Below, in pieces: positions 10,089 to 11,798 of a DNA stretch of 38,865 nt; the first letter of the stretch is position 1; each line of letters begins with the position of its first letter. The DNA lies in contig DATBBD010000516.1 of the NCBI GenBank assembly GCA_036271175.1, positions 1 to 38,865 of the forward strand, written 5' to 3'. A model generated the notes under the pieces. That model did no database searches. It saw only the letters and a list, made by a program, of their open reading frames with translations, and was not told the DNA's origin. Source of the stretch: Polyangiaceae bacterium. Its GTDB lineage: Bacteria; Myxococcota_A; Polyangia; Polyangiales; Polyangiaceae. The position numbers were made by a program, and so were the translations under genes.

Positions 10089-11798
10089 GTGCGCTACATC
10101 GTCCACCGCGGCCAGCGCATCGTGAAACTCGGCGGCGACGACGCCGCAGGACGCGCGACGACAAACGGCGTCGCGGCGAACCCCGACGGCACGGCGTATC
10201 GCGACGGCGCGGCGTATCGCGACGGCCGCGACGGGACGGCCTATCGCGACGGCACGGCGTATCGGGATGTCGCGGCGTTTCGCGACGGCCGCGACGGCTC
10301 CGCGAACCGCGACGGCTCCGCGAACCGCGATGGGCTGCGTGACGCCCGCGCAGCGAGCGCGCCGTCGTTCGGGCTTCTGTGTGTGATCGCGTTCGCGCTG
10401 ACGGCGGTCCTACGATCCCTCGTTCGATCGTTCAGACGCAGCCGCCACCGGTTCGGGGCCGCGAGTCGAGCCGTCGCGGTCGGCGCTGCGCTCGCGGTCG
10501 TGTGCACGTCGACGGCGCCGGGAGCAACGGCCGTTGCGCTCGCCGTGATCGCCGCGCTCTGCATGGCGCGGCATCGCGTGGTTCGAAGGGCGAGCCGCGG
10601 CGCGTTCGCGTTCTGCGCCGTTCTCGTCGCCGTCGCCGCGTGCGATGGTTCGAGTGCGCCGGGTCGCGCGGCGGATCCGCCGGGATCCATTCAGGAACTC
10701 ACCGACGCGGACACCCTCATCGCGACCGACTTGCTCGGCTCGGTGCTCGCCGAAACGACGAGCGCCGGACATCCGACCACCGCATTTGCCGCATATCCGT
10801 TCGGCGCGACGCGCTACGACACCTCGCACGCGACGTGGAAGTTCGCCGCGACCCCGCGCGACGGCGCGGTCGGCCTCGACCACATGGGTGCGCGCTTCTA
10901 CGCGCCCGATCTCGGCATTTTCGCCAGCGGCGACCCCGTCGCGCTGACCGACCCCGAGCGCCTGGTCACCGCCGAGTTCGCCGCCGCAAACCCCTACGCC
11001 TACGCGAAACAGAGTCCGACCATCGCGGTGGACAGAGACGGGCATTTTTTCCAGGTCATCGCCGGCGCCTTCATAGGAGGTGCCATCGGCGTCGGGCTGG
11101 AGGCAGCTCGGCAGTATCTGACCCACGGCAGGGTCGATGACCTAGGCCGAATCGAAGCGGCAGCCGTCGGAGGCGCAGTGAGTGGCGCCATCTGCTCGGT
11201 CATGCCGACCGCCTTGCTGGGCGTTGTCCTCGGACGTAGCGCGGTGTCGAACATCGGAGCCGGAATCGCGGAGCGGCTGTTCGCGTCGGGGGGTAAAAGC
11301 GCCGGGTCATTGACCGACGTCGCCATCGACGGCGCGGTGGGTGCAGCGACCGCGGGACTGCTGCATGGGACGGGGATCGGCTCCGGCGGGGTTCGCGGCG
11401 GGCTGCGGCGAACGGCGTCAGTGTCTGCGGCGCGCGTTGAAGGCTTTCTACTCAAGCGAGGAGTACCCAACGATGTAGCTCGAGGATTCTCCACGTCGTT
11501 TTCGGGACCGATCGACGCGAGGATCGTGGAACCCGGCGAGAAGTTTGCTAGGTATACAGGACGAGCCTTCACTCGAGGCAGTTTCTTGACCGAGACGACA
11601 TTCGCCAACTCTTCGGATGCGGTCGATGGACTGAACCTGGCCCCTTACGGCAACCCGGCGACGCTCCGACAAACCGTGACCGCCACTTCCAAGAGTATCG
11701 TGTTTGAGGGAGAGGTCGCCGGAGGGGCGCCGGGTGTCCGACAAACTTTGGTCACGGATCAATCGGCATTCGGATTCACCGCTGGGGTTCGATTTTGA
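10089..11798 (+). CDS. Continuation of the RHS protein: last RHS core repeats, a repeat-rich insertion, then a variable C-terminal toxin domain
   Basis: It is in the same frame as 5319-9971, and the frame is open from 9972 (QNGYGDDGARRTRVEAHPDGAKTTTHFIDAWSETQDGKLVRYIVHRGQRIVKLGG). It contains canonical RHS core-end motifs (LIATDLLGS, AYPFGATRY, GLDHMGARFYAPDLGIFASGDP) and a degenerate PxxxxDPxGL-like end (SPTIAVDRDGH). A Gly-zipper/TM-like segment of about 250 aa plus a globular tip follows. An alternative internal start at ATG 10563 would give a lipoprotein signal (MARHRVVRRASRGAFAFCAVLVAVAAC). Confidence 0.8.
   Translation: MRYIVHRGQRIVKLGGDDAAGRATTNGVAANPDGTAYRDGAAYRDGRDGTAYRDGTAYRDVAAFRDGRDGSANRDGSANRDGLRDARAASAPSFGLLCVIAFALTAVLRSLVRSFRRSRHRFGAASRAVAVGAALAVVCTSTAPGATAVALAVIAALCMARHRVVRRASRGAFAFCAVLVAVAACDGSSAPGRAADPPGSIQELTDADTLIATDLLGSVLAETTSAGHPTTAFAAYPFGATRYDTSHATWKFAATPRDGAVGLDHMGARFYAPDLGIFASGDPVALTDPERLVTAEFAAANPYAYAKQSPTIAVDRDGHFFQVIAGAFIGGAIGVGLEAARQYLTHGRVDDLGRIEAAAVGGAVSGAICSVMPTALLGVVLGRSAVSNIGAGIAERLFASGGKSAGSLTDVAIDGAVGAATAGLLHGTGIGSGGVRGGLRRTASVSAARVEGFLLKRGVPNDVARGFSTSFSGPIDARIVEPGEKFARYTGRAFTRGSFLTETTFANSSDAVDGLNLAPYGNPATLRQTVTATSKSIVFEGEVAGGAPGVRQTLVTDQSAFGFTAGVRF
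10185..10328 (+). repeat. Tandem 18-bp (and 9-bp) repeats encoding DG[TA]AYR / DGSANR / DGR hexapeptide units inside the RHS insertion
   Basis: Read directly: gacggcacggcgtatcgc x about 5 variants, gacggccgc x2, gacggctccgcgaaccgc x2. The translation is DGTAYRDGAAYRDGRDGTAYRDGTAYRDVAAFRDGRDGSANRDGSANR. Confidence 0.9.
10346..10404 (+). repeat. Interspersed repeat family 2, copy b, embedded in-frame in the RHS insertion
   Basis: ccgcgcagcgagcgcgccgtcgttcgggcttctgtgtgtgatcgcgttcgcgctgacgg aligns with 5125-5184 and 18511-18564. Here it is translated as RAASAPSFGLLCVIAFALTAV. Confidence 0.7.

Follow-up and report, generated by a model that had tools for sequence, protein, structure and literature searches.

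An expanded copy of a conserved internal helix and lipobox module in an interrupted RHS toxin gene of a Polyangiaceae bacterium

The DNA considered here (hereafter the window) is a stretch of 38,865 nucleotides (nt) from a Polyangiaceae bacterium (GenBank assembly GCA_036271175.1, contig DATBBD010000516.1), and its main subject is a TcB-TcC-like RHS gene in which a 192-codon in-frame segment separates the last repeats of the shell from the RHS repeat-associated core. Comparison with related proteins identifies this segment as one copy of a conserved module by which a sub-family of TcB-TcC-like, Sec-exported RHS toxins in Polyangiaceae is defined. Its parts are a flexible linker, a transmembrane helix, an Arg-rich loop, a type II (lipoprotein) signal peptide and a flexible tether that follows the lipobox Cys. 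We assign a probability of roughly 55% to the reading in which the segment is an expanded copy of an internal membrane-targeting module that would act in a relay leading to a C-terminal lipoprotein. The gene and its surroundings are organised as follows.

5334 to 9971, plus strand: N-terminal RHS (TcB-TcC-like) part of 1545 codons, with Pfam matches and a Sec signal, ending at a TAA codon
9969 to 9971, plus strand: in-frame TAA, identified by translation of the window and by the sense codons of relatives
9972 to 10136, plus strand: final RHS strands before the module, ending in RIVKLGG (alignments A1 and A4)
10137 to 10346, plus strand: variable linker with a DG[TA]AYR/DGSANR array, probably disordered (Tandem Repeats Finder, TRF; AlphaFold model of the relative P0003)
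10346 to 10425, plus strand: first hydrophobic helix (AASAPSFGLLCVIAFALTAVL), encoded by a copy of a dispersed repeat
10413 to 10469, plus strand: Arg-rich loop 1 (RSLVRSFRRSRHRFGAASR), predicted to be cytoplasmic by positive-inside logic
10470 to 10562, plus strand: long hydrophobic segment in two parts, AVAVGAALAVVC-TSTAPG-ATAVALAVIAALC, probably folded as a helical hairpin
10563 to 10643, plus strand: type II signal with ATG, Arg-rich n-region, h-region and lipobox VAAC
10644 to 10709, plus strand: Gly/Ser/Pro-rich tether after the Cys, disordered at the equivalent region of the P0003 model
10710 to 11048, plus strand: RHS repeat-associated core, ending NPYAYAKQSPTIAVDRDG/HF, where aspartyl autoproteolysis is expected (TIGR03696 and alignment; here and below a slash marks a predicted cut)
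11049 to 11400, plus strand: Gly/Ala-rich hydrophobic helical domain, conserved in A1 and A4 (hydropathy; helices at 654-758 of the P0003 model)
11401 to 11798, plus strand: polymorphic toxin tip of low GC3 (GC content at third codon positions), with two homologs, both of them C-termini of other polymorphic toxins
11795 to 12088, plus strand: putative immunity gene of 97 amino acids (aa), whose TTG start overlaps the RHS stop (TTGA) and whose function is suggested by its position

The RHS reading frame is made up of two open reading frames (ORFs) in the same frame, 5319 to 9971 and 10089 to 11798, parted by one TAA, and translation across the stop gives ...VANVDGSS-stop-QNGYGDDGARRTRVE. Altogether 2160 codons are open, the TAA at 9969-9971 being the sole break. 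By domain content, and the interrupted frame aside, the gene is an RHS/TcB-TcC polymorphic toxin: the first ORF matches the Pfam models TcdB_toxin_midN, RHS_repeat, FG-GAP_3 and SpvB (E-values 2.7e-30, 1.1e-29, 2.9e-24 and 7.8e-17, respectively), and the gene has a match to the YD repeat model TIGR01643. GGAGG stands 4 nt ahead of the GTG at 5334, and a Sec signal peptide is seen near the N-terminus, reading ...VAMALGTTAWSSPADA/SGVDPTRVSLPKGPG, also written ...GTTAWSSPADA/SGVDPTRVSLPKGPG. The core scores 50 bits against TIGR03696 (cut-off 32.5) over residues 275-358 of the reading that starts at 9972, and contains the autoproteolysis motif (...NP....DPxGL) as NPYAYAKQSPTIAVDRDGHF, at which cleavage is predicted. 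The SpvB/FG-GAP/TcdB_toxin_midN/RHS order, the core ahead of the toxin, and the variable tip with its adjacent candidate immunity gene are thus all those of an RHS polymorphic toxin; the uninterrupted reading frame expected of an RHS/TcB-TcC-like toxin is broken by the TAA. Every relative compared has a sense codon at this position, namely GAA (Glu) in locus L003 and GTN (Val) in L004, L005 and L008. Given the GAA in L003, a single G-to-T change would explain the TAA of the window, which has arisen by recent nonsense mutation or else reflects an error of sequencing or assembly. With the stop in place, the long protein cannot be made from the window copy. Among recorded proteins, the window protein has no exact copy.

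The segment itself lies between RIVKLGG (10116-10136) and DTLIATDLLGS (10710-10742). The 192 codons measured between them agree with a preliminary description of this DNA, which had placed an in-frame insertion of about 190 codons here and had remarked, again correctly, that canonical RHS proteins have only a short stretch at this point. Only a few residues stand at the site in canonical proteins, as in '...RYQ LDDQLGS' of distant relatives, in '...YYH PDHLGS' and in the Isosphaeraceae locus L007. The tandem hexapeptide units reported for the linker are recovered by TRF at 10176-10330 as a 63-nt unit, repeated 2.5 times and built of 18-nt and 9-nt subunits, of which the final two 18-nt units are identical. 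This array is unique to the window (it is absent from 14 of 14 aligned homologs) and sits where the module varies most in length and composition, at a place equivalent to residues 443-459 of P0003, which are disordered in the AlphaFold model. Its appearance is that of a flexible tether recently expanded by slippage. Hydropathy likewise confirms the three hydrophobic stretches, at aa 127-152, 163-201 and 207-224 of the 9972-start reading; they are parted by Arg-rich loops, and the middle one is long and bipartite around a TSTAPG centre. The lipoprotein signal that had been read from ATG 10563, MARHRVVRRASRGAFAFCAVLVAVAAC/DGSS, stands as described, with the lipobox VAAC, the Cys codon at 10641-10643 and a product of 411 aa. 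This signal, MARHRVVRRASRG-AFAFCAVLVAVAAC, shows the parts expected in a type II signal peptide: a positively charged n-region, an h-region of about 10-15 residues and a lipobox ([LVI][ASTVI][GAS]C). Within the long frame it is internal, and only a start at ATG 10563 would make it N-terminal.

The closest database relatives of the window protein are RHS proteins from metagenome-assembled genomes of Polyangiaceae. All 14 homologs in the first alignment carry a linker, a helix, an Arg-rich stretch, a hydrophobic stretch and a Cys between R(I/V)VRLA and D(T)L(I)..D.LGS, and the Cys is invariant in the aligned homologs (15/15 in alignment A1 and 12/12 in A4). Genome scanning with a trimmed alignment reached only four Polyangiaceae loci and one distant locus; a profile search over 1.84 billion representatives returned 76 proteins at E < 1e-30. 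The Cys was then tallied over 75 fetched proteins that cover its column, comprising listed matches and the earlier homologs and mutually less than 50% identical, and was present in 72, with a strict lipobox pattern in 61. In 55 proteins it is internal, lying 60 or more residues from the start as called. Where the Cys is internal, the 12 residues leading up to it mostly have strong hydrophobicity (about 2 Kyte-Doolittle units), the stretch just upstream of the h-region typically has 3-6 Arg or Lys and at most one Asp or Glu, and a second hydrophobic 15-mer is found upstream in 52/56, with a median maximum of 2.43 against 0.69 in the RHS body. Ser or Gly usually follows the Cys, and Lys only rarely; the window reads CDGSSAP. 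The preliminary description had proposed alignment with orthologous RHS genes to define the borders of the insertion, and had named a conserved segment common among homologs as a result that would refute it. Its suggestion of a new, foreign or mobile insertion is largely refuted for the module as a whole, as the same segment is conserved in 72 of the 75 homologs and its GC3 (0.81, against 0.83 in the rest of the RHS gene) is that of native coding sequence.

Relatives with an intact frame show the architecture in full. Single ORFs of 1969-2148 aa place the module at residues ~1620-1754 (the main gene of L002, the genes of L003, L004 and L006, and P0030, P0032, P0037, P0059, P0075, P0109 and P0158). 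A Sec type I signal stands at the start, followed by SLPKGPGSIEGL, in 8/8 carriers with a called start (the seven P proteins just listed and the L002 main gene); the Sec signal peptide lies further inside the open frame in L003, L004 and the window gene, and the part of L006 read shows none. In each of the five fused genes for which DNA was recovered (L002-L006), the frame remains open through the variable linkers, and seven further representatives are called as single proteins of ~2000 aa that span the module site. Module length is typically 88-106 residues, rising to 149 in P0002 and 192 in the window. These two and P0025 (L008) have in common a three-segment layout, with an extra helix, an Arg loop and a long bipartite segment, which resembles a duplication of the helix-loop unit. 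The window copy alone is a somewhat degenerate, expanded member of the module-bearing RHS family.

Part of the expansion is encoded by a dispersed repeat, which occurs in the window at three places.

5125 to 5204, plus strand: intergenic copy, between the GH6 gene and the RHS gene
10346 to 10425, plus strand: copy in frame within the RHS module
18511 to 18590, plus strand: copy between the convergent ORF 14811-18506 and a trypsin-like gene (18599-19570)

The interspersed repeat that had been noticed in the segment is indeed one of these three same-strand copies, which have two invariant arms, CCGCGCAGCGAGCGCG and TCGCGTTCGCG, in a unit of ~60-80 nt; the arm-gap-arm pattern matches three times in the window and not at all in shuffles. 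One copy also lies inside the RHS gene of L008 (4400-4462), the closest relative. Here the 63-nt repeat is 89% identical to that of the window, against 73-75% nucleotide identity in the flanks, and the rest of the module cannot be aligned between the two. The two copies have 24 consecutive identical bases, with mismatches distributed 4/2/4 across codon positions and hence no third-position bias. Such identity and such unbiased mismatches suggest that the repeat has been kept in the two RHS genes by DNA-level conservation or gene conversion, not by selection on the protein. The element was compared with REP/MITE-like repeats, of which multiple scattered copies, an imperfect palindrome and a place between genes are expected; it has three copies in the window, two of them intergenic, and one in L008. 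A 10-bp stem is possible in the repeat; since folding is no better than in shuffles for two of the three copies (only that at 18511 folds better, z = -2.3), we claim no structured RNA, and an Rfam scan of the whole window gave no match. Metagenomes yielded 39 exact matches to the arm pattern, none of which has the centre of the element, and these were dismissed as chance matches in GC-rich DNA.

It is conceivable that the segment is foreign, mobile or junk DNA, tolerated without function in a decaying gene, and the premature stop, the copy of a repeat that is otherwise intergenic and the recently duplicated hexapeptide array found nowhere else would all fit. We consider this very improbable, because the position and properties of the module are conserved family-wide, its GC3 is native, the 2160 codons are open but for a single TAA, and the repeat-encoded helix occupies a site at which P0002, which has no repeat, has a helix too.

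The AlphaFold model of P0003 shows how the module is set into the shell: confident RHS strands extend to residue 442 and are followed by disorder (443-459), two helices (460-477 and 482-501), Cys503, renewed disorder (503-530) and the strands of the RHS core. Such a helical hairpin between flexible linkers, with both flanks periplasmic in the predicted topology, might also act as an uncleaved anchor, in which two helices tether the cocoon to the inner membrane as a loop projecting from the shell wall and the Cys is kept for some other reason, for instance helix packing or a lipid added with no cut. This is improbable in our view, since the second helix ends in a lipobox and a Gly/Ser-rich tether, the signature of an Lgt/LspA substrate, in 61-72 of the 75 relatives; moreover, a plain hairpin needs no lipobox, and in the stand-alone relatives described below this sequence serves as the N-terminal lipoprotein signal.

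We favour instead a relay in which the module would transfer the end of the protein from one export signal to another: (i) The N-terminal signal peptide would send the shell of ~1600 aa through Sec. (ii) The internal helix would act as a stop-transfer sequence, and the Arg loop would be kept in the cytoplasm by the positive-inside rule. (iii) The second hydrophobic stretch would restart export, with Lgt and LspA (signal peptidase II) lipidating and cutting the chain at the lipobox Cys. (iv) The C-terminal ~400 aa, made up of the RHS core with its autoprotease, the Gly-rich helical domain and the polymorphic toxin, would become a lipoprotein, which may either complete a two-chain, lipid-tethered cocoon or serve as free SitA-like cargo. 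The flexible flanks, ~17 and 28-38 residues long in the P0003 model, would leave room for the helices to lie in the membrane and for the strands on either side to meet within the shell. Stand-alone relatives would make the same lipoprotein from a start codon of their own. As for the window, its module would have been enlarged by the slippage-made hexapeptide array and by an extra helix/loop unit partly encoded by the repeat, and it could act only through a start at ATG 10563, giving the 411-aa lipoprotein toxin; otherwise, the gene would be a recent pseudogene. N- and C-terminal autoproteolysis are the known maturation cuts of RHS proteins, so that a cut by signal peptidase II, if it occurs, would be the third. 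More tentatively, the cocoon may be split in this way after export and its lipid-anchored toxin module, made up of an RHS plug, a candidate membrane-translocation domain and the toxin, sent to the outer membrane and passed to neighbouring cells, for example by myxobacterial outer-membrane exchange, a possibility to which we give distinctly less weight than to the relay.

Genes that consist of the last part only do exist. Eleven fetched proteins have a Met directly at the type II signal (for example MKRRFASAAGVFLACTSLAVGIIAC, MAQPVSRVLVRLLAATLGLLALTLAC and MTNRVSRLFAAALLILAALSVAC). The stand-alone toxin genes are 350-565 aa long, far from any RHS shell gene and set in unrelated neighbourhoods (L051, L053/L054, L050 and L049). 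Thus P0041 (397 aa) has unrelated neighbours on its 10.7-kb contig and an overlapping 118-aa ORF behind it, P0045 is flanked by an FtsJ-type methyltransferase gene and small ORFs, and the sequence upstream is non-RHS for 599 nt in P0036 and for 263 nt in P0011. Unlike these, P0008 is a piece of a fragmented full-length gene, and P0013 and P0016 follow a main gene and its Imm26 immunity gene as 5'-truncated orphans of the classical kind. The latter two belong to L002, where the order over 3295-13785 is a 2044-aa main RHS gene, the Imm26 gene, orphan P0013, a leucine-rich repeat protein gene and orphan P0016; both orphans start in the last RHS repeats and keep the helix-loop-lipobox module. Another truncated RHS fragment, P0166 (L055 10001-11635 and L056 3329-4963), comprises the last repeat, helix, lipobox, core and toxin, and stands directly after rpsS in a ribosomal-protein operon, beside an rve-type integrase. 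A type II signal joined to the RHS-associated core, the Gly-rich helical domain and a polymorphic toxin is a functional gene type on its own. The stand-alone genes thereby support, in principle, the earlier suggestion of an independent orphan lipoprotein toxin: it stands as a gene type (P0041, P0045, P0036 and P0011), and in the window it would hold only through a hypothetical use of ATG 10563. Since each cassette holds a complete signal peptide, any truncation, such as that by the TAA of the window, would, in the more tentative reading above, give an autonomous lipoprotein toxin; this would also explain the stand-alone genes scattered among the relatives.

A rival reading, the main idea of the preliminary description, is an independent lipoprotein made by internal initiation. 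Translation would begin in the Arg loop, at ATG 10563 in the window and perhaps likewise in the fused relatives, the toxin would be exported by its own type II signal and work without the shell, and the long ORF would be an evolutionary or recombinational scaffold. We regard this as possible yet doubtful. Stand-alone homologs begin exactly at the same signal peptide, the upstream TAA disables the long ORF in the window, and ATG 10563 falls exactly at the start of the n-region, with a near-match to the stand-alone upstream motif present. Set against this, fused relatives have no conserved start codon there, Met being replaced by Leu, Cys, Ala or Trp, and the internal region of no fused gene has a Shine-Dalgarno-like sequence or a canonical copy of the motif. 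Furthermore, the frame has been kept open across variable linkers in L002-L006 and in the seven proteins of ~2000 aa, which argues that the fusion itself is selected and hence against internal initiation.

The upstream motif of the stand-alone genes has the form GCAAC-N15/16-CCGATAG-N7/8-start codon (L051 7966, L049 229, L052 324 and L053 6967) and could be an extracytoplasmic function (ECF)-type promoter whose transcripts have little or no leader. Full-length RHS genes are preceded by a looser form, GCAAC-N14-17-CCGA (window 5235, L003 1928, L004 1916 and L001 4989), which matches 31 times in 404 kb, compared with a rough estimate of ~10 by chance. Neither the window nor any of seven relatives has a Shine-Dalgarno-like sequence ahead of an in-frame start that lies upstream of the Cys, a negative that is uninformative because bona fide stand-alone genes have none either. 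Scanning of 9800-12400 found no sigma-70 promoter, and terminator-like matches there were at chance level only.

Several points weigh against the relay and against its application to the window. For LspA cutting a type II signal inside a protein, the literature searched offers no precedent, and we know of none. After such a cut the shell fragment would stay bound to the inner membrane through its two helices, and how the cocoon would then leave the cell is unclear. The topology of the three-segment variant (window, P0002 and P0025) is consistent only if the middle segment forms a hairpin. Within the window, the lack of a conserved Met at the position of ATG 10563 counts here as well; this ATG has no Shine-Dalgarno-like sequence (the stand-alone genes being likewise without one), and the copy of the upstream motif before it is imperfect, GCAAC-N14-CCGTGAT-N13-ATG. 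Finally, an error of assembly might account for the TAA, and the window gene would then belong, as an ordinary member, to the fused class. Given the TAA as it stands, which the preliminary description had not mentioned, ATG 10563 is the only obvious route to an exported toxin in the window. The gene may be on its way to the stand-alone form, may recently have become a pseudogene, or may owe its stop to an assembly error.

The region that would be delivered ends in a cassette that may have been exchanged horizontally. The Gly/Ala-rich domain, ~110 aa with the pattern GHFWHI.AGA..GA..GGG.EA.RQY...SGGKSAGTL.DV, lies after the autoproteolysis motif and before the variable toxins, is covered by no model of Pfam or NCBIfam, and occurs also in more distant RHS proteins without the lipobox module (P0078, P0081 and P0086). 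It is conserved ahead of nuclease, RNase and NADase-type tips and is a candidate for passage of the toxin across the target membrane. The tips that follow this conserved region in homologs include HINT, EndoU, WHH, TNT, AHH, RNase and HNH. That of the window has no Pfam or NCBIfam match, its only database homologs are P0164 and P0165, and its AlphaFold model (predicted local distance difference test score, pLDDT, 52) found nothing below E = 1 in a Foldseek search against the PDB; a TNT/ART-like pattern (R..G..GSFL...GG..RQ) was an impression only and is not claimed. The 97-aa putative immunity protein has no family match. GC3 falls to 0.60 in the toxin tip and 0.62 in the putative immunity gene, compared with 0.83 in the RHS body, and this low GC3 of 11401-12088 fits a horizontally exchanged toxin/immunity cassette. 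Just past the two lies an ORF on the plus strand (12394-12726) for a hydrophobic protein of 110 aa, whose ATG is 6 nt after a promoter-like motif (the looser form given above, at 12360), and which might be a second immunity or membrane protein. Elsewhere in the window, a 15-nt Gly/Asn/Ala/Thr-type array is in frame in the linker of the GH6 cellulase (3304-3498), an 18-nt Ser/Gly/Thr array is in frame at the start of an RCC1-repeat protein (24898-24990), and a 584-aa ORF with a DUF1565 match (13044-14798) has an N-terminus that reads as a lipoprotein signal (...VLVPWLALGGTVAC/HAAEG).

For annotation, these observations imply that proteins of ~400 aa labelled 'RHS repeat-associated core' and bearing a lipobox are real genes and not fragments, and that the RHS gene of the window should be flagged as interrupted. 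The way in which large Sec-exported myxobacterial Rhs proteins leave the producing cell and arrive at a target is poorly understood, a surface, contact-dependent inhibition (CDI)-like route being only presumed in a review (PMC10433427), and a conserved stop-transfer helix followed by a lipoprotein signal provides a concrete and cheaply testable hypothesis for Rhs delivery. If internal processing by LspA is real, it would be a new mode of RHS maturation and, for type II signals, a rare example of function far from an N-terminus. A lipobox inside RHS proteins is mentioned neither by Zhang et al. 2012 (PMC3482391) nor in PMC10433427, and full-text literature searches returned no mention of one and nothing relevant on internal lipoboxes or internal type II signals.

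Among known systems, the TcB-TcC and RHS cocoon toxins (YenB-YenC2 and TcdB2-TccC3, and the T6SS (type VI secretion system) Rhs effectors RhsA, Tre23 and TseI) have the same domain series as the family described here: SpvB, FG-GAP, TcdB_toxin_midN, RHS repeats, core and polymorphic toxin, with a downstream immunity candidate. They differ in that only a few residues separate the last shell strand from D.LGS, where this family has its module, and none has been described with an internal membrane helix and lipobox. Known cocoon toxins are associated with T6SS or TcA, whereas this family is Sec-exported by an N-terminal signal peptide; no TcA or T6SS gene, and no traAB, was identified among the ORFs scanned in the 38.9-kb window. 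The sequence relatives in the PDB are Rhs cores, with which only generic RHS repeats aligned, the insertion point not being spanned. Teneurin-like YD-shell proteins of Myxococcota have been predicted to be lipoproteins of the Sec/SPII (signal peptidase II) type (PMC13018210), and are therefore comparable as shell toxins of the same phylum with a predicted lipid anchor; their signal is N-terminal and anchors the whole protein, whereas that of the present family lies ~1600 residues in, at the boundary of shell and core. The Rhs orphan cassettes of Enterobacteria find a likeness in L002, with its main gene and immunity gene followed by two 5'-truncated copies, and a further one in P0166 beside an integrase. 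Classical Rhs orphans are without export signals, whereas the cassettes of this family carry the Arg loop, h-region and lipobox, and because the signal is complete, a truncation that gains a start codon in the loop would yield an exportable lipoprotein.

SitA proteins are lipoprotein polymorphic toxins of myxobacteria that are delivered by TraAB-dependent outer-membrane exchange (PMC5562445). Compared by layout only, SitA and this family, both from Myxococcota, have a lipobox, a conserved N-terminal region, a polymorphic C-terminal toxin (mostly of nuclease type) and an adjacent immunity gene, and the stand-alone P0041, P0045 and P0036 have exactly the SitA layout. The conserved region of the family, unlike that of SitA, is the RHS-associated core with its autoprotease motif and the Gly-rich helical domain, and in most members the lipobox is internal to an RHS protein of ~2000 aa. 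Under the sorting rule of M. xanthus, by which a lipoprotein without Lys at +2 is directed to the outer membrane (quoted in PMC5562445), the Ser or Gly after the Cys predicts an outer-membrane location. Alleles of traAB have been reported from Sorangium cellulosum (PMC6372800), and delivery of this family by outer-membrane exchange is pure speculation. The family nevertheless shows a possible change from a shell-encapsulated to a free lipoprotein toxin, which would link RHS and SitA-like toxins in evolution. By analogy, the family to which the window gene belongs would seem to work most like an RHS cocoon toxin and a SitA-type lipoprotein toxin combined.

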